Positions 2,109 through 59,656 of a DNA stretch of 64,000 bases are shown one piece after another. Numbering within the stretch: position 1 is the stretch's first letter; each line of letters opens with the position of its first letter. A program made the translations under genes and the position numbers. The notes beneath the pieces were generated by a model. The model ran no database searches. It was not told where the DNA came from and saw only the letters and a list, made by a program, of their open reading frames with translations. This DNA is from Escherichia virus TH41. Location of the stretch: the sequence record MT446412.1; one strand, 5' to 3'.

Positions 2109-2168
2109 TGTACAAATGAGTGTAGGTGCAGTATTATGCTCCTACACCAACGAACAAACGGAGTTAAA

Positions 2169-2501
2169 ATGAACATCAAAACTTATAACGAGTTTTTAGC
2201 CGAATCCGCCATCAATGAGACCAAATCAATTGATGATAGTGAAGGCTCTCTGAAATTTGGTTTAACCAAAAACGCAGATGGTGTTTTCTTTCAGATTGGT
2301 AATGAACGTTTTCAAACGTCCAAATATTCCAAAGCTGCAGTTGAAGCTGTCCTAAAATCTGGTGGCAAGTGGAAAGGCAAAGAAGGTACTAAAGAAATTG
2401 GTATCGCTGTTGACGGTGGTATGGCTTATTTTAAAATTGGCGATGAACAATTTATTATGTCTGCTCGCGGACGTAAAGAACTGGCAAAACTTTATAAATA
2501 A
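2169..2501 (+). CDS. capsid-targeted internal protein (IPI-locus member)
   Basis: N-terminus MNIKTYNEFLAE resembles T4 capsid targeting sequence MKTYQEFIAE; located at ipI position next to 57B. Confidence 0.55.
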   Translation: MNIKTYNEFLAESAINETKSIDDSEGSLKFGLTKNADGVFFQIGNERFQTSKYSKAAVEAVLKSGGKWKGKEGTKEIGIAVDGGMAYFKIGDEQFIMSARGRKELAKLYK

Positions 2502-2509
2502 GGTTTCTT

Positions 2510-2782
2510 ATGAAAACTTTCAATGAATTTTTCAACGAGTCACAACTGAATGAAGAAGTAAAAATTAGTAAAGCAGTCAAATCTATGATTGACAATATCA
2601 ATCACCTGTATAGCATTGACTTGACTGACCATATAACAATTGGTAACAAACGCAACTTTTTCGCGTTTGACATTTCAGAACTTGACCAGAACCAAATTAA
2701 TAACATTGAGCGTTTTGCCAATGACAAGGGTCTCCGTCATGAGACAGCTGGTTATAAAAAATATGCAATTTATCTAAAATAG
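2510..2782 (+). CDS. capsid-targeted internal protein candidate
   Basis: N-terminus MKTFNEFFNE (CTS-like); RBS AAGG upstream. Confidence 0.5.
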   Translation: MKTFNEFFNESQLNEEVKISKAVKSMIDNINHLYSIDLTDHITIGNKRNFFAFDISELDQNQINNIERFANDKGLRHETAGYKKYAIYLK

Positions 2783-2790
2783 GATTTCAA

Positions 2791-3090
2791 ATGCAAACTT
2801 TTCATGAATTTTTGGTAGAAAACAATTACCTGGCAGAAGCAAAAACCTGGCCTCTGGGTCTTCAGAAGAAAAACACCTACAAATGGGTTGACTTCAAAGG
2901 TAAAGGCGACGCTGAAGACTTTGACCAGCTGCGTAAAAATGGTTATACCTTCCTTGACTCTAACTATAACAAAATTACCTCTTTTAGTCAGAAGTCAAGC
3001 ATTGCCTTCATTGAAACTGGTAAGAACTCTCCTAAAGATATCACTGACGACTTCACCGCTTATGGTGTAATTCGTGGTTCAAAAATGTAA
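2791..3090 (+). CDS. capsid-targeted internal protein candidate (paralog of 16952..17215)
   Basis: N-terminus MQTFHEFLVE; shares GDAEDF...RKNGY[TS]F...IAF..G with ORF 16952. Confidence 0.5.
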   Translation: MQTFHEFLVENNYLAEAKTWPLGLQKKNTYKWVDFKGKGDAEDFDQLRKNGYTFLDSNYNKITSFSQKSSIAFIETGKNSPKDITDDFTAYGVIRGSKM

Positions 3091-3145
3091 TGTACACGAT
3101 GGGATAGTTGCAGTATAATTATCCCATCAACTACTGGAGCTACTA

Positions 3146-3424
3146 ATGAAAACTTATCAAGAATTTATTAACGAATCAATTAGTCACCCGGATATGCTGG
3201 AAGACCTGAAAGGACATCTGATGGTTAAGGCCAAACCGGTTGATGGTGGCGCATTTGAGTTGTTTCTTGTTAAAGGCGAAAACGGTCCTGATAACAAGAA
3301 AGTTTCAGCAATGATGTTGACTAAAGGTTACAAAGTCAGTTCTTCCTGGAATGCTCCATTCACTTACGCGGTAAGCCCTCGTGAACTGAAAAAAGTTAAA
3401 GCTGGACAATATACAAAAATTTAG
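3146..3424 (+). CDS. capsid-targeted internal protein
   Basis: N-terminus MKTYQEFINE; preceded by promoter/stem-loop cassette and GGAG RBS. Confidence 0.65.
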   Translation: MKTYQEFINESISHPDMLEDLKGHLMVKAKPVDGGAFELFLVKGENGPDNKKVSAMMLTKGYKVSSSWNAPFTYAVSPRELKKVKAGQYTKI

Positions 3425-3478
3425 TGTACGTGATGGGATAACTGTAGTATGATTATCTCATCAACTACTGGAGACCAC

Positions 3479-3733
3479 ATGAAAACTTATCAAGAATTTA
3501 TTACTGAATCTGCAAATGCAAAAGTTGAGTTTGCTTATGTTGGTTCGCCGCGTGGCAGTTTTTCCAATGAGGAATTCCGTCGTTCACTGGACAATTTCAT
3601 GCAGTTAAGTGCTGAAGTATCGCATGATGGTCGTTATGACATCGTTACTATTAGCGGTTCTGAAGACCTTATCAAAAAGTGGCACAAGCAGAAAGATGTT
3701 GAGATGCGTTACTATCGTATCCCTAAAAAATAA
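3479..3733 (+). CDS. capsid-targeted internal protein
   Basis: N-terminus MKTYQEFITE; start chosen at RBS-supported ATG 3479 rather than upstream ATG 3449 that lies in the promoter. Confidence 0.65.
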   Translation: MKTYQEFITESANAKVEFAYVGSPRGSFSNEEFRRSLDNFMQLSAEVSHDGRYDIVTISGSEDLIKKWHKQKDVEMRYYRIPKK

Positions 3734-4961: not shown

Positions 4962-5231
4962 ATGTTAGTATTAAAATTAGCTTTTTACGACCCTAAAACA
5001 AAGACAACCACTACCAAACGTTGCTCTATTTCGTATGAGTGTCAATTTGGTGAAATTCAGCATCCAACAGGCGAAACCTTTATGTCAATTGGTTGTTCAA
5101 CATTCAATAAAGTCAAATTAATCCCGTTGGTTAATACGGCGGCTTATCTGGTTGCTCCAGAAGAAATGACTTATCATACAATTCAGCATATGGTTAAAGA
5201 TGATAATGCTCCTGCTGGATTTGTAATTTAA
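4962..5231 (+). CDS. hypothetical protein
   Basis: ATG at 4962 with GAGGTG RBS; ends 5 nt before tRNA. Confidence 0.4.
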   Translation: MLVLKLAFYDPKTKTTTTKRCSISYECQFGEIQHPTGETFMSIGCSTFNKVKLIPLVNTAAYLVAPEEMTYHTIQHMVKDDNAPAGFVI

Positions 5232-5236
5232 TTTTA

Positions 5237-5312
5237 GGCCCTGTAGCTCAATTGGTTAGAGCATCCGGCTCATAACTGGCAGGTTTCCGGTTCAAGTCCG
5301 GATGGGGCCACC
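5237..5312 (+). tRNA. tRNA with CAU anticodon (Met or lysidine-modified Ile)
   Basis: Cloverleaf by hand: acceptor GGCCCTG/TGGGGCC, D-arm GCTC..GAGC, anticodon loop CTCATAA, T-arm TCCGG-TTCAAGT-CCGGA; one mismatch in anticodon stem. Confidence 0.7.
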
Positions 5313-5389
5313 CGGGGTGTAGCTCAATTGTATAGAGCAACGGTCTTCTAAACCGTAGGTTGTGGGTTAGAATCCCACCACCCCGACCA
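5313..5389 (+). tRNA. tRNA-Arg (anticodon UCU)
   Basis: Acceptor CGGGGTG/CACCCCG, anticodon stem ACGGT/ACCGT, loop CTTCTAA, T-arm GTGGG-TTAGAAT-CCCAC, encoded CCA. Confidence 0.8.
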
Positions 5390-5404
5390 ATTACTGAGGA
5401 TATT

Positions 5405-5644
5405 ATGGTTATTAGTGAATCATATGCAGTTATGGATATAACCAGCAACGAGCTGGTTTATAGCTTTGATGAGTTTGACGAAAATGATAAACAAGTCCCA
5501 TGGTTTGCATTAACTGCTCCACCTGAACATAATAAATATCTAAGTTTCCCGACTCGCAGACTAGCAACAAATTTTATGGAATTCAATGACCTTGATTCCA
5601 ATTATAAGGTTGTTAAAGTCAAATTAGCTATTACAATTGAATGA
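5405..5644 (+). CDS. hypothetical protein (tRNA-region ORF)
   Basis: ATG 5405 with GAGGA RBS immediately after tRNA-Arg; 79 aa. Confidence 0.45.
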   Translation: MVISESYAVMDITSNELVYSFDEFDENDKQVPWFALTAPPEHNKYLSFPTRRLATNFMEFNDLDSNYKVVKVKLAITIE

Positions 5645-5649
5645 GAAGC

Positions 5650-5860
5650 CGGGTCGCTACCGGTAAGTCGTCGGGGCCTGTTCCCTGGGGTATTGTTCCT
5701 CCCACAGTTTTCTGTGTTCTGGTTCTTTACTATCACATCAGGCACGGCGCACCCTTTTACGGAGTTTTTCCAGAGCGGGCGGTGCGCCCGGTAGTATGAG
5801 AAATCCGAGCGGATGGTGCATCCGGTACTATGGAATATAAATATTAACAACAACCCTAAT
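5650..5860 (+). ncRNA. candidate structured small RNA(s), possibly analogous to T4 rnaC/rnaD
   Basis: GC-rich segment with no credible sense ORF, 8-bp inverted repeat GGCGCACC/GGTGCGCC and GGATG..CATCC hairpin; sits downstream of tRNA cluster. Confidence 0.35.
5836..5843 (+). promoter_or_regulatory. T4-type late promoter TATAAATA
   Basis: Exact TATAAATA about 30 nt upstream of ORF 5875. Confidence 0.5.
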
Positions 5861-5874
5861 AATGGAAAAACAAA

Positions 5875-6258
5875 ATGCTTACATATGCAGAATTTTTAAA
5901 TCGCAATACCATCACCGAATCCGTACTGACTGAAGCTGGCAAATTTTCTTTAGTGGCTCCAGAAAAAGCCGGCGTTTCAATTGGTGACCGTGTTATGTTC
6001 AAGAAACCAGTTAATGGCGTTTCTTGGGGTATCGTAACTGGGTTTGGTATCAAAGCTAAAGATGTTAAAAACGCCGCCGCGCCAGGTGCTAAACTAGCCG
6101 GTTCCAAAGTTTCAACTTATATGGTTCGTCCTAAACAGTCTCCAGGTAATGGTGCCGCTGACTGGGTTGGTGCTCCAATCGAAATCGCTCGTGATAAATT
6201 CTTGAACATCACTGACCGTGCCAACGAACGCGCTGCAATGGCATTCGCTCGCGGATAA
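5875..6258 (+). CDS. hypothetical protein with CTS-like N-terminus
   Basis: N-terminus MLTYAEFLNRNTITE; late promoter upstream; terminator downstream. Confidence 0.5.
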   Translation: MLTYAEFLNRNTITESVLTEAGKFSLVAPEKAGVSIGDRVMFKKPVNGVSWGIVTGFGIKAKDVKNAAAPGAKLAGSKVSTYMVRPKQSPGNGAADWVGAPIEIARDKFLNITDRANERAAMAFARG

Positions 6259-6295
6259 GAACACTTGCCTTGCAGGTGGAACCCCGACAAGGTAT

Positions 6296-6325
6296 AGCCC
6301 CTTCCGAAAGGTTGGGGCTTTTTTA
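6296..6325 (+). terminator. Rho-independent terminator
   Basis: AGCCCC-loop-GGGGCT followed by TTTTTT. Confidence 0.7.
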
Positions 6326-6347
6326 TAAATCAACTAAAGAGAAACGT

Positions 6348-6902
6348 ATGAAACTGTTAAAATATTTGAGTTGGATTCTGTTAGTTCCGCTGGATTTTAT
6401 CTCCATGATTCTGGCCGTTATCCTGGCTCCATTTGTAGTTCCGTTCCATAATAAAAAGACTGGTAAACTTCCGTTCGGGTTTGATTGGATGATGACTTAT
6501 GATAATCCGATTGATGGTGACCGTGGTCATATCAAACGTTGGTCAAAAATCCGAAAATGGCCATTAGGTGTTTACTTCCAACGAGTAGCCTGGCTCTGGC
6601 GAAACAAAGCATACAATTTTGCTTACCACAAGCTCGGTCGTGATTGCAATTCAGAATTCCATTATAAAGGTAATCCTGATGTTGAATCTGGTTCCCCAGA
6701 TAAAGCTCATCATGGATGGCTCTTTATGTGGACGGACAATGCCTGGGGTGTTTTTGCTTCTGTTCCTTATCTTAAGGTCGGTGGAATCACCTTTTATCTG
6801 CGTGTTTATTGTGGCTGGAAGCTCAAGAGCCTTCTGTCCCGACCCATCCCTAAGGCTATGCTCGCCTTTCATATAAATCCGTTCCGCTTTTATAAGAACT
6901 AA
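6348..6902 (+). CDS. membrane-anchored hypothetical protein
   Basis: N-terminal TM helix (WILLVPLDFISMILAVILAPFVVPF), 184 aa. Confidence 0.5.
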   Translation: MKLLKYLSWILLVPLDFISMILAVILAPFVVPFHNKKTGKLPFGFDWMMTYDNPIDGDRGHIKRWSKIRKWPLGVYFQRVAWLWRNKAYNFAYHKLGRDCNSEFHYKGNPDVESGSPDKAHHGWLFMWTDNAWGVFASVPYLKVGGITFYLRVYCGWKLKSLLSRPIPKAMLAFHINPFRFYKN

Positions 6903-6903
6903 C

Positions 6904-6926
6904 AGCCCGCATTGCGGGCTTTTTTA
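6904..6926 (+). terminator. Rho-independent terminator
   Basis: AGCCCGC-ATT-GCGGGCT plus T-run. Confidence 0.75.
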
Positions 6927-6963
6927 TACCCCGAATAAATTTGAAATTTTCTTCAAAAAGTAG

Positions 6964-6992
6964 TGTACATCCAAATTGTCTGGGTGCATAAT
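6964..6992 (+). promoter_or_regulatory. early sigma70-type promoter
   Basis: GTGTAC -35, 17-nt spacer, CATAAT -10. Confidence 0.5.
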
Positions 6993-7043
6993 GATTCCAT
7001 ACTGAGTTACACACTGAATCAAACAAAACTTTGGAGAAATAAA

Positions 7044-9983: not shown

Positions 9984-10323
9984 TCTTGCATCACATGTTT
10001 ATCAATTGGCTGAATATGATATTGGTGCCAATTTATTATTAGGGATTGTCACCGCCATGCTTGGTGGTTTGGTTGGTCTGGTAATGACCACGGTTATGGC
10101 TGCAATCGAGGGAGTCATGCCCATTGAGATGGGTTTCTTTATGATAATCGCTCCGGCTGTTGTGTCTTATTTTATCCCTGTTGTGTATGATATCTGTCAC
10201 ACAAATGCAGTGAATGCTCCTAGTCGGAAGAGATATGGTTCAGCAATGGCTGAGTATAATAAGTTCCTGAACAAAACAAAACGTAATGAACTTGAAACCT
10301 TTATTAAGGAATGTAAATCATGA
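9970..10323 (+). CDS. small two-TM membrane protein (FIKEC tail family)
   Basis: Two TM helices, C-terminus ...LETFIKECKS. Confidence 0.5.
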   Translation: MERPSLASHVYQLAEYDIGANLLLGIVTAMLGGLVGLVMTTVMAAIEGVMPIEMGFFMIIAPAVVSYFIPVVYDICHTNAVNAPSRKRYGSAMAEYNKFLNKTKRNELETFIKECKS

Positions 10324-10610
10324 ATAAAATTGAAATTGCTATCCCCAAGTATTATGATGAGAAATCTGCAGAAAAAGCTATCTATTCTCTTCTAAATAAG
10401 ACCTCTGAAATTGAAAAACACTGTGAAGAAATCGCAGATGAATATGGTATCGAATTCAGCACTGGTGATTACGGCACCGGCCGTACATATCACCCAGTCG
10501 GTTATGAATGTTCCGAATGGTTCGCTCACCATATTGAAAACAACGGCGGACAAGTTGAAAACGGCATTGTTACTGTTGGTGCCTGGGTTTCCTCTTCTGA
10601 GGTGTGCTAA
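10320..10610 (+). CDS. small protein, member 1 of C-terminal W-x-S-S-x-x-C tandem family
   Basis: Ends ...GAWVSSSEVC; ATGA overlap with upstream gene. Confidence 0.55.
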   Translation: MNKIEIAIPKYYDEKSAEKAIYSLLNKTSEIEKHCEEIADEYGIEFSTGDYGTGRTYHPVGYECSEWFAHHIENNGGQVENGIVTVGAWVSSSEVC

Positions 10611-10611
10611 T

Positions 10612-10893
10612 ATGATGAATGATTACCGTAAAAATAAAGAACTGGCTAACGCAGTAAATGACATCCATAAAGCTATTCGTCGTGCTGAGGAAATTGCAAA
10701 CAAATATGAGACTCATTTTAATATATACCCTGCTCGCGGTATGGGCGGTGACTATTATTCTCCTGGCGCCCTGAAAGCTGACCTTGCTCATTGGGAAGAA
10801 CATGGTCATCCTGAATGGGCTATTGTTAATACTCATGACTATACAACTGACCTGGAAAAAGGCGGTTGGGTGTCCTCCTCTTCTGAATGTTAA
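10612..10893 (+). CDS. small protein, member 2 of W-x-S-S-x-x-C tandem family
   Basis: Ends ...GGWVSSSSEC; ATG 1 nt after previous stop. Confidence 0.55.
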   Translation: MMNDYRKNKELANAVNDIHKAIRRAEEIANKYETHFNIYPARGMGGDYYSPGALKADLAHWEEHGHPEWAIVNTHDYTTDLEKGGWVSSSSEC

Positions 10894-10902
10894 GGAACTA
10901 TT

Positions 10903-11100
10903 ATGTCTCGTGAACTAGATTGTGCAATCCGTACTGCCGCGGCAGCTATTGAAAACGTTATCCAGATTTGTAAAGAAGAGCGTGAAGAAGCTGATATCTA
11001 TATCGATGGTGTTCGTGACCTAGAACGACATATCACGCTTTATAATGGTTGTATTACTATTAGTGGTACCTCTTGGGTGTCCTCCTCTTACGAATGCTAA
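10903..11100 (+). CDS. small protein, member 3 of W-x-S-S-x-x-C tandem family
   Basis: Ends ...TSWVSSSYEC; RBS TAAGGAA formed by previous stop. Confidence 0.55.
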   Translation: MSRELDCAIRTAAAAIENVIQICKEEREEADIYIDGVRDLERHITLYNGCITISGTSWVSSSYEC

Positions 11101-11109
11101 GGAAATAAA

Positions 11110-11328
11110 ATGACTGCTAAAACTGTTAAAGAAATTGAAGACCAAATCCGTGCACTAATCTGTGAAGGTGAACAACTGGCCGATAAAACCGGCGAACACT
11201 TCCGTAGCGGTGGCGAAGAATATATTCCAGCTTCTAGTCCGGAATATAACGATTATGAATGGGTTCGTGACGAATATTGTATTCCAGAAGGTGAAGGTTT
11301 CTGGTTTAACTCCTCTATGTCTTGCTAA
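11110..11328 (+). CDS. small protein, member 4 of W-x-S-S-x-x-C tandem family
   Basis: Ends ...GFWFNSSMSC; RBS TAAGGAA. Confidence 0.55.
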   Translation: MTAKTVKEIEDQIRALICEGEQLADKTGEHFRSGGEEYIPASSPEYNDYEWVRDEYCIPEGEGFWFNSSMSC

Positions 11329-11337
11329 GGTGATAAA

Positions 11338-11571
11338 ATGACTACTGCTGTTGAACATGCTGAATTAGAAAAAGCTGCCCTTGAACTGGCTGCACTGTAT
11401 AAGAAAGTAAAAGATATGGCTTTTGCTCAAGATTTCGGTGTTGAGCTTGATGATTATGACGGCGAAGTCCGTCTTGAAGACTGGTTGAACAGTTCTTGTT
11501 ATGGTGAAGAAGCTGGTCGTACCTTCGTTGCTCGTGCCGATGGTAAAATCTGGTACCCAAGTTCATGTTAA
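11338..11571 (+). CDS. small protein, member 5 of W-x-S-S-x-x-C tandem family
   Basis: Contains DWLNSSC and ends ...KIWYPSSC. Confidence 0.55.
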   Translation: MTTAVEHAELEKAALELAALYKKVKDMAFAQDFGVELDDYDGEVRLEDWLNSSCYGEEAGRTFVARADGKIWYPSSC

Positions 11572-16158: not shown

Positions 16159-16575
16159 ATGACTCGCATTAATTTAACTCTGGTATCTGAACTTGCTGAC
16201 CAACATCTTATGGCTGAATATCGTGAGCTTCCTCGCGTGTTTGGTGCAGTTCGCAAACATATACAAAATGGTAAAAAGGTTTCTGACTTTAAAATTCCAT
16301 CATCTTTTCTTTTAGGAACTGGTCATGTCACCTTCTTTTATGATAAACTTTTGTTCCTTAAAAACCGTCATCAAGAACTTATTGCGGAATGTTTAAAGCG
16401 AGGGTTTAACATAAAAGATATTTCTACCCAAGATTTAAATGATATTCCTGATGAATGGAAGAATGATTATCAACCATCAATCTGGTCAATTGAAATCAGT
16501 CAAGCCAGACTGAATGAGAAAATTTCTCAAAAGCCTACCTGGTACAAATACTATGGGAAAGCTGTGTACGCTTAA
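16159..16575 (+). CDS. denV: endonuclease V (pyrimidine dimer DNA glycosylase, denV)
   Basis: [29 protein letters not shown]... near-identical to T4 denV. Confidence 0.95.
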
Positions 16576-16623
16576 CTAAAAAGGTTGTATAATGATTTTA
16601 TCAACCAAACAATGGAATATAAA

Positions 16624-16938
16624 ATGAAAACTTATCAAGAATTTATTACTGAATCTACCCAAAAACGTGTTGAAGGCGGTTATGTCTGGATTGAACAGTT
16701 AACCCCACCAAGTGAAACAAGCACAGGTTCATGGAAAATTACTGTTGATGGTCCTGGCGGCAAACGCAAGACTATTAAAGAAATTAAAGGCTATTATGAT
16801 GAAGCTAAATCATGGGCGGGTAGTCATGTAATGCAGATTAAAATTGCAAATCCGGATAACGTTCATGCAGCAAAAGCATTCCGTCGTATTGGTAATAAAC
16901 TTTATGATGCGTTTTTGCGCGATTTCCCTAAAGCTTAA
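16624..16938 (+). CDS. capsid-targeted internal protein (IPII/IPIII-locus member)
   Basis: MKTYQEFITE at RBS-consistent ATG 16624 (upstream in-frame ATGs lie in the promoter). Confidence 0.6.
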   Translation: MKTYQEFITESTQKRVEGGYVWIEQLTPPSETSTGSWKITVDGPGGKRKTIKEIKGYYDEAKSWAGSHVMQIKIANPDNVHAAKAFRRIGNKLYDAFLRDFPKA

Positions 16939-16951
16939 TTAAAGAGACATT

Positions 16952-17215
16952 ATGAAAACGTATCAAGAATTTATTACTGAATCTGCCAAAGCTCCTGCTG
17001 GTTCCTTTAAAGTCCGCGCCTTCGCTGGCGATGCTGAAGACTTTGGCACCATGAAGCGCAATGGTTATTCTTTCTTTGGTGGCGATGGTAAAGAAATTGT
17101 CACATATGCAAAACGTCGCGAAATCGCATTCGTGGTTGCTGGTAAGAAAGTTGATGCTGACGATATTGAATGGGACTTTGAGACCTTTGGTATTGTTTCT
17201 GGCGGTAAAGCATAA
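16952..17215 (+). CDS. capsid-targeted internal protein
   Basis: MKTYQEFITE; paralog of 2791..3090. Confidence 0.6.
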   Translation: MKTYQEFITESAKAPAGSFKVRAFAGDAEDFGTMKRNGYSFFGGDGKEIVTYAKRREIAFVVAGKKVDADDIEWDFETFGIVSGGKA

Positions 17216-17217
17216 CT

Positions 17218-17246
17218 GTTTACTTTATGATGGGATAGTGTATAAT
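17218..17246 (+). promoter_or_regulatory. early promoter with -10 inside stem-loop
   Basis: GTTTAC-17 nt-TATAAT; inverted repeat ATGGGATA/TATCCCAT brackets the -10; followed by GAGGAG RBS. Confidence 0.6.
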
Positions 17247-17274
17247 TATCCCATCAACTACTGAGGAGAATAAA

Positions 17275-17472
17275 ATGTTAACTTATAAAGAATTTATGAA
17301 AGAAGTTAAAAAACTTAAAAAGACTTCTGGCGATGTTAAAATTGAAATCCATGGTCAAAACGTAAATGTGGTAGCGGATGGCCAGGCATTAGTTCTTTAT
17401 AGTGATAAAGACCAAGAATTTCGTGAAGCACAAAAGAAAAAATTTACCGTATGGCTTAAAAAAGCTGTTTAA
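17275..17472 (+). CDS. small basic protein with CTS-like N-terminus
   Basis: MLTYKEFMKE...; 65 aa. Confidence 0.5.
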   Translation: MLTYKEFMKEVKKLKKTSGDVKIEIHGQNVNVVADGQALVLYSDKDQEFREAQKKKFTVWLKKAV

Positions 17473-17480
17473 GGACCAAT

Positions 17481-17780
17481 ATGAAAACGTATCAAGAATT
17501 TATCACAGAAGCCAAAGCTCCTAAAGCATTTCAAATCGGAGTCCAGGGCAATTTAGACCAACAATATGTTGATGCTATTGTCGCAAGCCTCGGTAAACAA
17601 GGTGTACAAGTGGATTTGGTTGATTTTACTAAAGGTAATACTTTTAATATTGTCGCATCTAAAGGTTCTTTAGCTAAAGTTAAAAAGGCCTTTGGCGTAG
17701 CACAAGCATATGAAATTGACCATTCTGAATTAGAAAATAAAGGTCGCCAGAACACAATTAAAGGCTCTGGTTCTTTTTAA
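17481..17780 (+). CDS. capsid-targeted internal protein
   Basis: MKTYQEFITEAKAP... Confidence 0.6.
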   Translation: MKTYQEFITEAKAPKAFQIGVQGNLDQQYVDAIVASLGKQGVQVDLVDFTKGNTFNIVASKGSLAKVKKAFGVAQAYEIDHSELENKGRQNTIKGSGSF

Positions 17781-17941
17781 TAAAGGCAAACCGACCCTCT
17801 CCTCATGAACTTCGTGTCCTCTGAGTGATGGACCTTTCCCTACCTGTAATAAGGTCGAGCCCGAGTGCGGTAAGGGGTTTACATTCGGATACATGGACGA
17901 ATTAATGTGCCAAGGAATGGCCCCACAACTAAGAGACAACT

Positions 17942-18469
17942 ATGAAATTTTTAACTCCCATTTATCTAACTTTAATGCACGCCTTCGCTGAACGCGCCAT
18001 TGAACGCTTAGATTCAGACCAATACACCTGGTATGAACCCGCTTCAAGAATGCAAGAGTTTGGTACCCTTAGACTTGACGGTGGAAGACAAACAGGTAAA
18101 ACAAGTGCCATTGCGCAGTTCGCGGCGGATTGGGTTTCTAAAGGTAATGATGTGATTGTTATGTCGAGTTCTTCGCATCGCTCACGAGAAATCTGTAATA
18201 TAATAAAGCGGGTGTCTAAGGCACAACCACATCTTAATGTTGAACGACCTGGATTCGTTGTCTATGATACTGTACGCAGTTTCCTTGATGAAGATAATTT
18301 TCATAAGTACCGTGGATTGCGTTTTACGCGTCTTTTAATCATTATTGAAGAACCTATTCGCCTCCCTGCAATGGATAAGTTCTATGAAGCTTATCAGGTA
18401 ATGATGAATAAATTTATGTGTCAAGGTGATAAGCCTTTGCCACTGTTCTTTGTGATAGGAATGCAATGA
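17942..18469 (+). CDS. small P-loop NTPase-like protein
   Basis: Walker A GGRQTGKTS and Walker B-like LLIIIEEP. Confidence 0.5.
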   Translation: MKFLTPIYLTLMHAFAERAIERLDSDQYTWYEPASRMQEFGTLRLDGGRQTGKTSAIAQFAADWVSKGNDVIVMSSSSHRSREICNIIKRVSKAQPHLNVERPGFVVYDTVRSFLDEDNFHKYRGLRFTRLLIIIEEPIRLPAMDKFYEAYQVMMNKFMCQGDKPLPLFFVIGMQ

Positions 18470-22620: not shown

Positions 22621-22896
22621 ATGGTATACAAGGTTTGGACGTATATCTCTATTTTGATATTCCTGGTTTTGGTTTTTGTTCCTATGCAACAGGACCAGGA
22701 AAGGTATGAGCGCGAAGTCGAAATCGTTGCAAGTACCTATCACTCGTTCAACAAAGAGTGCCCCAATAAAAACGGAATAAGCCTGCAACAAGCATACTAT
22801 TTGTCAACGGTCACCAGTCCAAAACAACGGGTCTGGGTTGAACGTAATTTTGCAGGTTTATTTTCAGAGTACTGCTTTAATTTTAAACGTCTATAA
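22621..22896 (+). CDS. small membrane protein
   Basis: N-terminal TM helix; 91 aa. Confidence 0.45.
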   Translation: MVYKVWTYISILIFLVLVFVPMQQDQERYEREVEIVASTYHSFNKECPNKNGISLQQAYYLSTVTSPKQRVWVERNFAGLFSEYCFNFKRL

Positions 22897-22899
22897 ATA
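22892..22899 (+). promoter_or_regulatory. late promoter TATAAATA (MotA-box TGCTTTA lies 12 nt upstream)
   Basis: Exact TATAAATA upstream of rI; TGCTTTAA at 22874-22881. Confidence 0.5.
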
Positions 22900-22968: not shown

Positions 22969-23262
22969 ATGGACCTTATTCGAGGACTTTCATTAAGTCT
23001 AATAATCCTGGGCTGTTTAGGTCCAAATCTGTCCTCTGCAACAGATGGGAAGTTTACCCAATATGCAGATAGTGCGATGAAGATTTATTCGCAATTCAAA
23101 GAACCAAGCGTGCACCAATCCGAACAGTTCTGGGCGTTTATCAAGACTGAATGGAACAACAAAAGCCAATGCGAAACTGAAATTACCTGCAAAAGCGATG
23201 GTAAAGCTGCGGCGAGAGAGTACGCTAAATTAATGAAGGTAAAATTGGAAGATGAAATTTGA
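22969..23262 (+). CDS. rI: lysis inhibition regulator RI (antiholin)
   Basis: 97 aa with N-terminal signal-anchor; SEQFWAFIK and AREYAKLMKVKLEDE match T4 RI; adjacent to tk. Confidence 0.75.
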   Translation: MDLIRGLSLSLIILGCLGPNLSSATDGKFTQYADSAMKIYSQFKEPSVHQSEQFWAFIKTEWNNKSQCETEITCKSDGKAAAREYAKLMKVKLEDEI

Positions 23263-58020: not shown

Positions 58021-58242
58021 ATGTTTGTTTTAACTCAATTTTCTAAAGCAACATATAGCTACTCTTGTCAATGGGAAGTCTTCATTGATACACCGTCTCC
58101 CAAGTATGGAGTTTTCGGACGAGTAACTACACAAGCTTATGTTGCGCGACCAACCAAACGTCAGATTCGTAAGCTTAAAAAGGCGCATCGCCAACTGATT
58201 AAAAGAAGGGAACAATATGAGTGCAATGTGTACGGGCTCTAA
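58021..58242 (+). CDS. small basic hypothetical protein
   Basis: 73 aa. Confidence 0.4.
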   Translation: MFVLTQFSKATYSYSCQWEVFIDTPSPKYGVFGRVTTQAYVARPTKRQIRKLKKAHRQLIKRREQYECNVYGL

Positions 58243-58408
58243 GATTTCCGTATTCGAGATTTTTGAAGAATATGAAATCGTGTCGCAAGACCAAGAAGCA
58301 ATCCATGTTATCGCTGATGATGGTGTTACCTGGATTATTCCGTTGTATCATGAAGACACTTATGAAGTGACTGATGCAAATGGTGATAAAGCTGTCTTCG
58401 TTGTATAA
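58217..58408 (+). CDS. small acidic hypothetical protein
   Basis: 63 aa. Confidence 0.4.
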   Translation: MSAMCTGSKISVFEIFEEYEIVSQDQEAIHVIADDGVTWIIPLYHEDTYEVTDANGDKAVFVV

Positions 58409-58411
58409 ATA
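58404..58411 (+). promoter_or_regulatory. late promoter TATAAATA
   Basis: Exact TATAAATA 17 nt upstream of CTS-like ORF 58428. Confidence 0.45.
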
Positions 58412-58627: not shown

Positions 58628-59656
58628 ATGTCATATATTGATAAAGAATTTGCGGTTAGAGCTTTATCGTATCAACCACGTTATAGAGAAGTCACCGGGA
58701 GCACATTTAAAGCAAACTGTCGTTGCAAGGTTTGTGGGGACTCCCAGAAAGATTCACACAAGGCTCGATTCTGGGCGTATACTAATCCGGCTGATGGCGC
58801 GGTTTACGTGAAATGTTTTAACTGTGACTACTCCACGCATATAAGCAAATACATAAAAGAGTTTGAGCCGGATTTACACTGGGAATATATGGTTGAGAAG
58901 TATAAGGAGAATGCCTTTGGCAGACAACGTAATGAAGTTGCCGAAACTCCGAAAGAACCAGAAAAAACTCCGGTTATCGAAGAGCTTGCTTTTTGTGAAA
59001 GACTCGATACTTTACCAGAAGCGCATCCTATAATTAAGTATGTAAAAAGTCGGTGTATTCCTAGCAATGTTTGGAACCGGTTATGGTTTACAAACAAATG
59101 GCCTGCATTAGTTAACTCCGTTAATCCTGGGACGTATAAGAATGAAACGAATGAACCACGCTTGGTTATTCCTATCTTCAACGGCAAAAAAGAAATCGAA
59201 TCTTTCCAAGGACGAGCTCTTCGCAAAGATGCACCACAAAAATATATCACAATCAAAGCTCACCCAGAAGCTTCCAAAGTCTATGGTGTAGACAAGATTG
59301 ATGAGCGCAAGCGCGTGTGGGTAATGGAAGGTCCGATTGATAGTTTGTTTATCCCTAACAGCATTGCGATAACTGGTGGAACATTGTCATTGGAAGCCGT
59401 TCCTTATCCAGAAACCAGAGTATGGGTAATGGACAACGAACCAAGACATCCGGATACGATTAAACGTATGAAGAAGCTCGTTGAAGCTGGCGAAGCTGTT
59501 ATGTTCTGGGACAATGCACCATGGCATACGAAAGACATAAATGAGATGGTTAAATCAGAAGGAGCAACCCCTGAACAAATCGAATCATATATGGCTGATA
59601 ACGTTGCCCAAGGATTGATGGCGAGAATGCGACTTTCGAAGTACGCAAAAGTTTAG
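58628..59656 (+). CDS. 61: DNA primase gp61
   Basis: Zinc ribbon C.C.VCGDS..D..KAR.W.Y and C-terminal GPIDSLFI.N.IAITGG...VW..DNEPRHPDTIKRM.KLV.AGE.VMFWD match T4 gp61. Confidence 0.95.
   Translation: MSYIDKEFAVRALSYQPRYREVTGSTFKANCRCKVCGDSQKDSHKARFWAYTNPADGAVYVKCFNCDYSTHISKYIKEFEPDLHWEYMVEKYKENAFGRQRNEVAETPKEPEKTPVIEELAFCERLDTLPEAHPIIKYVKSRCIPSNVWNRLWFTNKWPALVNSVNPGTYKNETNEPRLVIPIFNGKKEIESFQGRALRKDAPQKYITIKAHPEASKVYGVDKIDERKRVWVMEGPIDSLFIPNSIAITGGTLSLEAVPYPETRVWVMDNEPRHPDTIKRMKKLVEAGEAVMFWDNAPWHTKDINEMVKSEGATPEQIESYMADNVAQGLMARMRLSKYAKV

Follow-up and report, generated by a model that had tools for sequence, protein, structure and literature searches.

A candidate family of internal head proteins encoded in place of rnaC in Gaprivervirus, and the resemblance of gp61.1 to the gp23 maturation site

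Introduction

Does the gene at positions 5875-6258 encode a protein that is packaged into the phage head, although it lies away from the genes of the known internal proteins? The earlier note proposed that ORF 5875 and ORF 58428, two isolated genes whose products start like a capsid targeting sequence (CTS) and which are each preceded by an exact T4 late promoter motif, may be additional virion cargo. It added that ORF 17275 has the same N-terminal variant as ORF 5875. Internal head proteins (IPs) are delivered into the host together with the DNA, and some of them are dedicated inhibitors of its defences, such as IPI*, which inhibits GmrSD. The T4 internal proteins and the polymorphic IP genes of T-even phages were reportedly treated by Repoila et al. 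in 1994 and by Mullaney & Black in 1996. Both subjects have been reviewed (PMC3012670, PMC9026906). In the CTS, targeting is chiefly determined by residues 4 and 7 and processing by residues 8 and 10, and the CTS alone suffices to load foreign proteins into T4 heads (PMC9026906).

The window (the whole stretch of 64,000 nucleotides analysed here) belongs to a T4-like coliphage of the genus Gaprivervirus, and its gene order is that of T4 reversed. The features discussed below are collected in Table 1. Over positions 5000-7000, the window matches Escherichia phage UPEC01 at 100% identity and VR20, TH44, DK-13 and others at 91-97%. Two UPEC01 labels in this part of the genome, 'holin' on the DUF7338 gene (6348-6902) and 'major capsid protein' on a 72-aa ORF (11110-11328), are meaningless annotations. 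A search of the window against Rfam returned the two tRNAs alone at the gathering threshold, and 5380-6340 gave nothing meaningful at E <= 1.

Table 1. Positions of the genes and elements discussed in the text, in window order
Feature	Positions	Strand	Remarks
Genes 3, 1, 57A, 57B	before IP cluster A		first genes in window order
IP cluster A	about 2169-3733		five IP-like ORFs, after 57B
ORFs with TATAAATA 9-69 nt upstream	2510 (IP-like); 5875; 22969 (rI-like); 58428; 60985 (soc)	+	
tRNA-Met and tRNA-Arg	5237-5389		
rnaD (species 2 RNA) homologue	5641-5757	+	left cassette border
Non-coding spacer, 78 nt	5758-5835	+	sits where T4, JS98-like MN04 and P479 have rnaC
Putative late promoter motif TATAAATA, gp55-dependent type	5836-5843	+	exact; 31 nt before the ORF 5875 ATG
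Shine-Dalgarno-like GGAAA	5864-5868	+	6 nt 5' of the ORF 5875 ATG; read from sequence
ORF 5875, 127 aa	5875-6258	+	candidate new internal head protein
Predicted propeptide of CTS type (MLTYAEFLNRNTITE, residues 1-15)	5875-5919	+	predicted cut before Ser16
Alternative propeptide end, LTE	to 5934	+	predicted cut before Ala21
Hairpin region and intrinsic terminator	6260-6324	+	stem 6296-6319, then TTTTT; right cassette border
Long accessory region, then nudE, e, denV	between the tRNAs and the second IP cluster		
Second IP cluster (cluster B)	16624-17780		after denV
Sigma-70/T4-early-type promoter TTTACT-16-TATAAT	17219-17246	+	in stem-loop ATGGGATA...TATCCCAT, PeSL-like, 5' of ORF 17275
ORF 17275, 65 aa	17275-17472	+	rare IP-type cassette inserted inside IP cluster B
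TATAAATA	58404-58411	+	overlaps the ORF 58217-58408 stop codon; ATG of ORF 58428 is 16 nt downstream
ORF 58428, 55 aa	58428-58595	+	T4 gene 61.1 orthologue; CTS-like start, gp23 N-arm copy, basic tail
Gene 61 (primase); gene 56; soc	58628-59656 (gene 61); 60985 (soc)		far downstream of cluster B

Results and Discussion

A cassette in place of rnaC

In T4, MN04 and Gaprivervirus P479, tRNA-Arg is followed by rnaD, rnaC and a conserved hairpin/terminator region. In the window, the place of the 139-nt rnaC is taken by an unrelated 78-nt sequence, the TATAAATA motif and ORF 5875. The rnaC gene is 98.6% conserved among T4, MN04 and P479, and none exists within the whole 64-kb window. Homology to these three phages ends inside or just after rnaD and resumes at 6260, right after the stop codon of ORF 5875 (6256-6258). 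The window rnaD shares 97% identity with T4 rnaD over 34-35 nt at its 5' end, and its 3' end CGGCGCACC is kept too. The rnaD of P896, another carrier of ORF 5875, is full-length and has 89% identity to that of T4. On the right side, the terminator at 6296-6324 is common to the end of the T4 tRNA/rnaD/rnaC unit; an automatic terminator scan missed its stem because of two T-T mismatches. Thus bounded, 5758-6324 is a self-contained cassette that replaces rnaC at the 3' end of the tRNA/rnaD unit in some Gaprivervirus.

Fifteen phage records contain the cassette, with protein identities of 99% or more throughout; P479, CJ20 and RZ have rnaC in its place. The spacer is 98% conserved in the other carriers, and its 18-nt block 5768-5785 recurs unchanged in a metagenomic contig (L019) upstream of a distant homologue of ORF 5875 (P0020, see below). 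Folding of 5641-5835 gave a stability no greater than that of shuffled controls (z = -0.96), and therefore no structural claim is made for the spacer. In carriers L002 and L007, the promoter motif and the leader are 100% conserved, and the flanking RNA region just upstream is 83-93% identical. The GGAAA element is also found 5' of T4 ipI, ipII and ipIII.

ORF 5875 is a real gene under purifying selection. Against L002, 15 synonymous changes and 1 non-synonymous change were counted, and against L007 9 and 0, giving in total 24 substitutions in synonymous codons and one non-synonymous substitution. An identity with T4 e.8 or trna.4 was ruled out, as there is no similarity. The location of the cassette within the tRNA transcription unit makes it probable that ORF 5875 is carried on early or middle read-through transcripts as well.

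A tag conserved in a divergent protein family

What kind of protein is encoded? ORF 5875 has no match in Pfam or PHROGs, and a word-indexed search of 5.8 billion proteins returned its own cluster alone. Exhaustive HMMER searching of 1.8 billion representatives and a subsequent profile search brought to light three distant homologues only, all from metagenomic T4-like contigs and with 38-47% identity in the C-terminal domain. These are P0003 (202 aa, starting MYTFKEFLVESELDLITEAKK), P0004 (125 aa, MKSFKEFMLSEKV) and P0020 (134 aa, MLTYNEFLEEKSGNNLTEAIV). When they were compared with isolated phages by tblastn, only the 15 known carriers were recovered.

The N-termini of all four divergent members of the family fit M-x-[TS]-[YF]-x-E-F-[LM], with [IL]-[TS]-E coming after it. 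The tag of ORF 5875 departs from the canonical MKTYQEFIAE in having Leu2 instead of Lys and Arg10 instead of Glu. The targeting residues are kept, as Tyr4 and Phe7 in ORF 5875 and ORF 17275 and as Phe4 and Phe7 in ORF 58428, and they are likewise present in the whole ORF 5875 family. As for the (L/I)-x-E motif of the gp21 prohead protease, LNR at residues 8-10 of ORF 5875 does not fit, while ITE at 13-15 and LTE at 18-20 do. The corresponding residues 8-10 of ORF 58428 (INE) fit, and ORF 17275 has MKE, with Met at P3. The surroundings of the gene are kept as well. A NATAAATA motif, i.e. [T/G/A]ATAAATA, lies 28-34 nt upstream and a hairpin terminator lies downstream in all four cases; in the homologues the motif reads GATAAATA at 29 nt and AATAAATA at 28 and 34 nt before the ATG. 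These are one-mismatch variants of TATAAATA and putative promoters. Genes for tRNAs adjoin three of the four family members, and two of the three homologues lie just after them.

The strongest argument that the tag functions is its retention at 38-47% domain identity. It is unlikely that ORF 5875 is an ordinary non-virion accessory protein whose CTS-like start is a by-product of recombination through CTS-coding DNA, as in the shuffling of IP genes, and, with its Arg10 and Leu2, no longer targets anything. Such recombination in CTS-coding repeats does occur in this genome, as the ORF 17275 insertion with its two repeats testifies; ORF 5875 itself is devoid of the canonical Glu10 and lies outside both IP clusters. 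However, a dead relic would have decayed, whereas this tag persists in four homologues, one of which has the canonical Glu10 (MLTYNEFLEE in P0020). Residues 4 and 7, the reported determinants of targeting, are intact, and an (I/L)-x-E site follows within 20 residues in every family member.

The mature part of ORF 5875 is basic, with a pI of about 10.1-10.3 (9.0-9.6 for IPI*/IPII*). Single-sequence AlphaFold2 gave a pLDDT of 36 and was of no use. A model built from five sequences reached 70.6, i.e. moderate confidence, with residues 1-21 disordered. In this model the mature domain is best read as an SH3/KOW-like barrel, a fold which says little on the target. In a BFVD fold search, the VR20 copy of this protein was the sole hit, and virion proteomics for Gaprivervirus was not found in the searchable literature.

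I consider it fairly probable that ORF 5875 represents a new family of internal head proteins, encoded in a late-promoter cassette that has displaced rnaC. Late transcription, packaging, cleavage, injection and a target are the steps that I infer for it. Residues 1-15 (or 1-20) would be the capsid targeting sequence, with Tyr4 and Phe7 binding the protein to the scaffolding core during prohead assembly. The gp21 protease would then cut after ITE15 (or LTE20), and the basic SH3/KOW-like domain of about 11 kDa would stay in the head with the DNA and be injected into the next host. There it would most likely bind nucleic acid or a host defence protein, as IPI* does.

Late-promoter motifs and the late-expression premise

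Both exact TATAAATA motifs named in the earlier note, at 5836-5843 and 58404-58411, are present in the window, as are the CTS-like starts of ORF 5875 (MLTYAEFLNRNTITE), ORF 58428 (MKTFKDFINE) and ORF 17275 (MLTYKEFMKE). Could all of this be chance in an AT-rich genome? The total of six TATAAATA is close to the 4.7 expected from shuffling (both strands) and thus unremarkable as a raw count, and two of the six overlap stop codons, forming TA-TAA-ATA. Their placement is a different matter. All six are on the coding (+) strand, and five of the six sit 9-69 nt 5' of an ORF start (binomial P about 4e-4, the tail for at least five of six, with about 15% of positions lying that near a + strand ORF start). 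The fifth of these sites, 58404, was counted by hand: the crude gene model had dropped the 55-aa ORF 58428 under a longer minus-strand ORF, and its table gave a distance of 216 nt instead of the actual 16 nt to the ATG.

T4 late promoters, which depend on gp55, gp33 and gp45, have TATAAATA centred near -10 on the coding strand, a short distance 5' of a gene, and the motifs at 5836 and 58404 agree with this arrangement. The soc and rI orthologues are likewise preceded by TATAAATA, and soc and rI are late genes in T4. Upstream of the gene 61.1 orthologue (ORF 58428), the motif is found in the same place in Dhakavirus C6 and Kanagawavirus CIP9 despite a different upstream gene, and Jiaodavirus KpV477 has AATAAATA there. 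Of 801 ATG ORFs, 9 have the N-terminal pattern M-x-T-[YF]-x-[ED]-F-[ILMV], every one of them on the + strand; 20 shuffled windows did not yield a single case. Neither the placement of TATAAATA nor the CTS-like starts are explained by chance, and that highly improbable explanation is rejected by the strand and placement, conservation and shuffle tests.

The premise that packaging needs late expression did not survive. No TATAAATA is present in the 130 nt 5' of T4 ipI, ipII or ipIII; the early promoters of these genes are of the GTTTAC type and sit in stem-loops, and the genes have been classed as 'early RNA, late protein' (PMC9697503 supplement). Since the T4 ip genes use early promoters, head cargo does not need a late promoter of its own and cannot be diagnosed by one, and the promoter argument adds little to the case for ORF 5875. 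What counts is the tag and the presence of the protein when proheads assemble.

The IP loci of T4-like phages lie next to 57B/ipI or e/denV. ORF 17275 lies in such a place; ORF 5875, after the tRNA genes and about 2.1 kb from cluster A, and ORF 58428, upstream of gene 61, do not. Location at an IP locus is a usual feature of the IP family and is not mechanistic. The distance of ORF 5875 from the classical IP loci, about 2 kb, counts against reading it as cargo.

ORF 17275 belongs to the main IP locus

Is ORF 17275 a third gene of the same kind? It can hardly be called isolated, for it sits between two IP genes of cluster 16624-17780, and TATAAATA is absent for this gene, the only promoter being of the sigma-70/T4-early type. 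This promoter agrees with the consensus at 10 of 12 positions, and the same element drives ip7 in VR20. ORF 17275 was found in only one other phage record (TH44, 97% identity) and has no match in Pfam or PHROGs; the pI of its mature part is 9.7. Compared with VR20, the block 17275-17480 is an insertion between the early-type promoter stem-loop and ip7. It is flanked by CTS-coding repeats (17275-17310 and 17481-17516), both of which align to the same 36 nt at the 5' end of VR20 ip7. The repeats at both ends point to recombination within the tag-coding DNA. Thus, ORF 17275 is a rare member of the known main IP cluster, without a late promoter.

Of the proposal of additional cargo outside the main loci, then, the part on ORF 5875 is well supported by comparison, with a CTS, a gp21-type motif and a late-promoter-like motif kept in all four divergent members. 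For ORF 17275 the cargo-type reading is supported, while the separate locus falls away.

ORF 58428, gene 61.1 and the gp23 maturation site

ORF 58428 matches phrog_1823 with E = 6.6e-32 over profile positions 1-52 of 54 and lies directly 5' of the primase gene 61, as in T4 and UFV-AREG1. Its relatives occur in 1458 phage records. No study of gp61.1 function was found in the searchable literature, only two incidental mentions. Automatic pipelines name it 'major capsid domain-containing protein', and this name is misleading.

The weaker tblastn matches of ORF 58428 fell on gene 23, and this similarity is real. In BLASTP, its residues 2-46 align without gaps to T4 gp23 57-101 (44% identity, E = 2e-10), and T4 gp61.1 aligns to gp23 57-93 (46% identity, E = 6e-9). 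A comparison of the gp61.1 and gp23 profiles gave 95.7% probability, and a PDB sequence search with ORF 58428 found gp23 chains, e.g. 6uzc, at residues 58-96. In register, Phe4, Phe7, Ile8 and Glu10 of gp61.1 stand opposite Phe59, Phe62, Leu63 and Glu65 of gp23. An HK97-fold body (A/P domains, E-loop, about 450 residues) is absent from ORF 58428, whose 55 residues cover gp23 57-101 only. The gp23 segment copied in gp61.1 is inside the immature shell and probably contacts the scaffolding core, and the head-length mutations A66D, A94V and G97S lie in it (PMC9546572). These alignments indicate that ORF 58428 is a small paralogue of one part of gp23, namely the maturation site and the N-arm that probably contacts the scaffold, and that the tag-like start of ORF 58428 can be traced to homology with this site.

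T4 gp61.1 begins with MKTFKEF, seven residues that it shares with the start of T4 IPI. Short forms of gp61.1 in many genera keep the CTS-like start, some with Val at position 7. Long forms of about 149-166 aa were found in S16, RB43 and phages of Acinetobacter and Aeromonas; these have an unrelated N-terminal domain and no CTS, and keep the x-x-E motif and the N-arm copy in register with gp23 Glu65. The long forms have no Pfam match. The idea that their N-terminal domain is the body of the gp23 propeptide was rejected, as hhalign matched gp23 61-103 alone.

Is gp61.1 also head cargo? This is uncertain for ORF 58428, which may use the same prohead route as the internal proteins. There is a real possibility, if a minor one, that gp61.1 is not cargo and acts in the cytoplasm as a mimic of the gp23 maturation site and N-arm, or has a role linked to its anti-toxin neighbours. 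As a mimic, it could be a decoy or regulator for the gp21 protease, the gp22 scaffold, the gp31/GroEL route or a capsid-sensing defence. The RNA of T4 61.1 has been classed as early and its protein was not detected (PMC9697503 supplement), and the gene lies in the dmd - 61.4 (tifA) - 61.2 (adfA) 'anti-TA island' (PMC9391042). TATAAATA is absent 5' of 61.1 in T4-type phages, with none between T4 genes 41 and 61, and the long forms carry the unrelated domain in place of the CTS. All of this suits a non-virion protein. The early RNA, however, is no evidence against packaging, because the T4 IP genes also make 'early RNA'. Moreover, the start identical to that of IPI over seven residues is kept in the short forms, x-x-E stays in register with gp23 Glu65 even in the long ones, and TATAAATA is conserved directly upstream in three genera.

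The same residue types occupy positions 4, 7, 8 and 10 of T4 gp23 AQAFGSFLTE/A and of the CTS MKTYQEFIAE/A. It is tempting to speculate, though the odds are against it, that the CTS was copied from the ten residues that end the gp23 propeptide, with gp61.1 as a living intermediate. If true, the IPs, gp61.1 and gp23 would dock at the same core site. Also, gp61.1 would be an overlooked prohead component that is processed by gp21, releases a basic peptide of about 45 residues and has its gene among the replication genes of most Straboviridae, those with long forms included.

Significance

The diversity of IPs and the CTS are already well known, and ORF 5875 adds a previously unnamed family. Because injected IPs include defence inhibitors, each new IP family is a candidate anti-defence factor and host-range marker in therapeutic T4-like phages. 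ORF 5875 suggests that genes of the cargo type also occur away from the classical loci, in this case by displacement of a conserved stable-RNA gene, and scans restricted to the IP loci therefore miss such genes. The collinearity of gp61.1, gp23 and the CTS is the most original point; it offers a testable idea on the working and the origin of the tag. For gp61.1, whose gene is conserved in well over a thousand phage genomes and is not known to have been studied, it may also give a first handle on function.

Comparison with known systems

T4 gene 61.1 has the same size and position as ORF 58428, which is 70-83% identical to T4-type sequences. The copies in the window, Dhakavirus and Kanagawavirus have an exact TATAAATA 13-16 nt upstream, whereas T4 61.1 has none. 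The segment of gp23 that gp61.1 matches gapless (44-46% identity) is residues 56-101, i.e. the end of the propeptide, the Glu65/Ala66 maturation site cut by gp21, and the N-arm/N-fist. Unlike gp23, gp61.1 lacks the HK97-fold body, carries a lysine-rich tail at its end and is no capsid protein.

PeSL cassettes of T4-type phages consist of a promoter-early stem-loop and an ORFan (PMC2839356). ORF 17275 and several IP genes of the window resemble them in having a strong sigma-70-type promoter in a stem-loop upstream, and in varying by insertion and deletion between close relatives. A promoter and stem-loop lie directly 5' of a variable ORFan in the case of ORF 17275, and not in those of ORF 5875 and ORF 58428. 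The edges of the ORF 17275 insertion are CTS-coding repeats rather than two PeSLs, and the ORF 5875 cassette differs from PeSL cassettes in using a late promoter motif and the existing terminator.

The closest counterparts of ORF 5875 are T4 IPI, IPII and IPIII. Like it, they are small basic proteins with a tag of about 10-20 residues, in which an aromatic residue at position 4 and Phe7 are followed by (L/I)-x-E, and they join this tag to unrelated, fast-changing cargo domains whose genes are shuffled as cassettes. IPI resembles it further in having a long propeptide that ends in ITE (MKTFKEFTSTTTPVSTITE/A, i.e. MKTFKEF...ITE/A, with ITE at residues 17-19). Unlike the T4 IPs, ORF 5875 belongs to a separate sequence family with no Pfam or PHROG match, has Arg at position 10 instead of Glu, and has an exact late promoter motif of its own, while the T4 ip genes use early promoters. 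Its packaging is predicted from sequence features, and its gene takes the place of rnaC in the tRNA/stable-RNA unit, away from the ipI and ipII/ipIII loci.

Mosaic structure around ORF 17275

None of the other phage records searched matches the window over its full length. The genome of TH41 is a mosaic relative of the phages UPEC01 and TH44, because UPEC01 is identical to it over 5000-7000, yet the UPEC01 alignment to 16550-18000 ends at about 17215, and ORF 17275, which was not found in UPEC01 when the phage records were searched with tblastn, occurs elsewhere in these records only in TH44, at 97% identity.

Loss of rnaC and doubtful names of neighbouring genes

The homologue of the stable RNA rnaD is kept in the window (5641-5835 region) with a diverged middle part, and rnaC is wholly lost from the window. 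The rnaC sequence has 98.6% identity among T4, a JS98-like phage, and the Gaprivervirus P479. Natural phages without rnaC could aid the study of its function.

A 184-aa gene (6348-6902; DUF7338/phrog_2143) lies 3′ of the cassette that holds ORF 5875, and its counterpart is missing from phage P896. It is named 'holin' in UPEC01 and related records with no visible support; the N-terminus of its product looks hydrophobic, resembling a membrane protein. Five small ORFs form a tandem array at 10320-11571 (+ strand). The products of all five share a C-terminal end, W-x-x-S-S-(x)-C (WVSSSEVC, WVSSSSEC, WVSSSYEC, FWFNSSMSC, and WYPSSC). In the UPEC01 record, one of them bears the name 'major capsid protein', apparently through misannotation.

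Long forms of gp61.1

Long forms of gp61.1 (149-166 aa, phrog_2086) were found in Salmonella phage S16, Acinetobacter phage AB-Navy4, Aeromonas phage Aswh_1, and RB43. Their N-terminal domain, about 105 residues long, is conserved and gave no Pfam match; the gp23-like segment follows it. In Aswh_1, the gene is directly flanked by the helicase gene 41 and the primase gene 61.

Promoters of the rI-like ORF and the internal protein genes

The late promoter motif TATAAATA is present at 22892-22899, 69 nt 5′ of a 97-aa ORF (22969-23262). The N-terminus of the ORF product is hydrophobic and signal-like. Its C-terminal part presumably resembles the T4 antiholin rI, and this likeness is consistent with conservation of a late promoter at rI.

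Another exact TATAAATA (2493-2500, + strand) shares bases with the stop codon that ends ORF 2136-2501. Only 9 nt separate it from the ATG of the internal protein (IP)-like ORF 2510, and a transcript begun there would carry almost no leader. In both IP clusters, early-type promoters lie within stem-loops (for example, ATGGGATA...TATCCCAT) upstream of the IP genes.

Coordinates of the compared features (L numbers denote DNA of other phages)
Feature	DNA	Position
rnaC comparison region	L006	1270-1408
rnaC comparison region	L008	2094-2232
gp61.1 long-form gene	L016	171-635
gp61.1 long-form gene	L020	71-547
gp61.1 long-form gene	L021	98-547
gp61.1 long-form gene	L022	86-586
Early-type promoter + stem-loop upstream of IP gene	window	2110-2168
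Early-type promoter + stem-loop upstream of IP gene	window	3091-3145
Early-type promoter + stem-loop upstream of IP gene	window	3425-3478
Early-type promoter + stem-loop upstream of IP gene	window	17216-17274

The T4 genes ipI, ipII, and ipIII likewise have early-type promoters in stem-loops.
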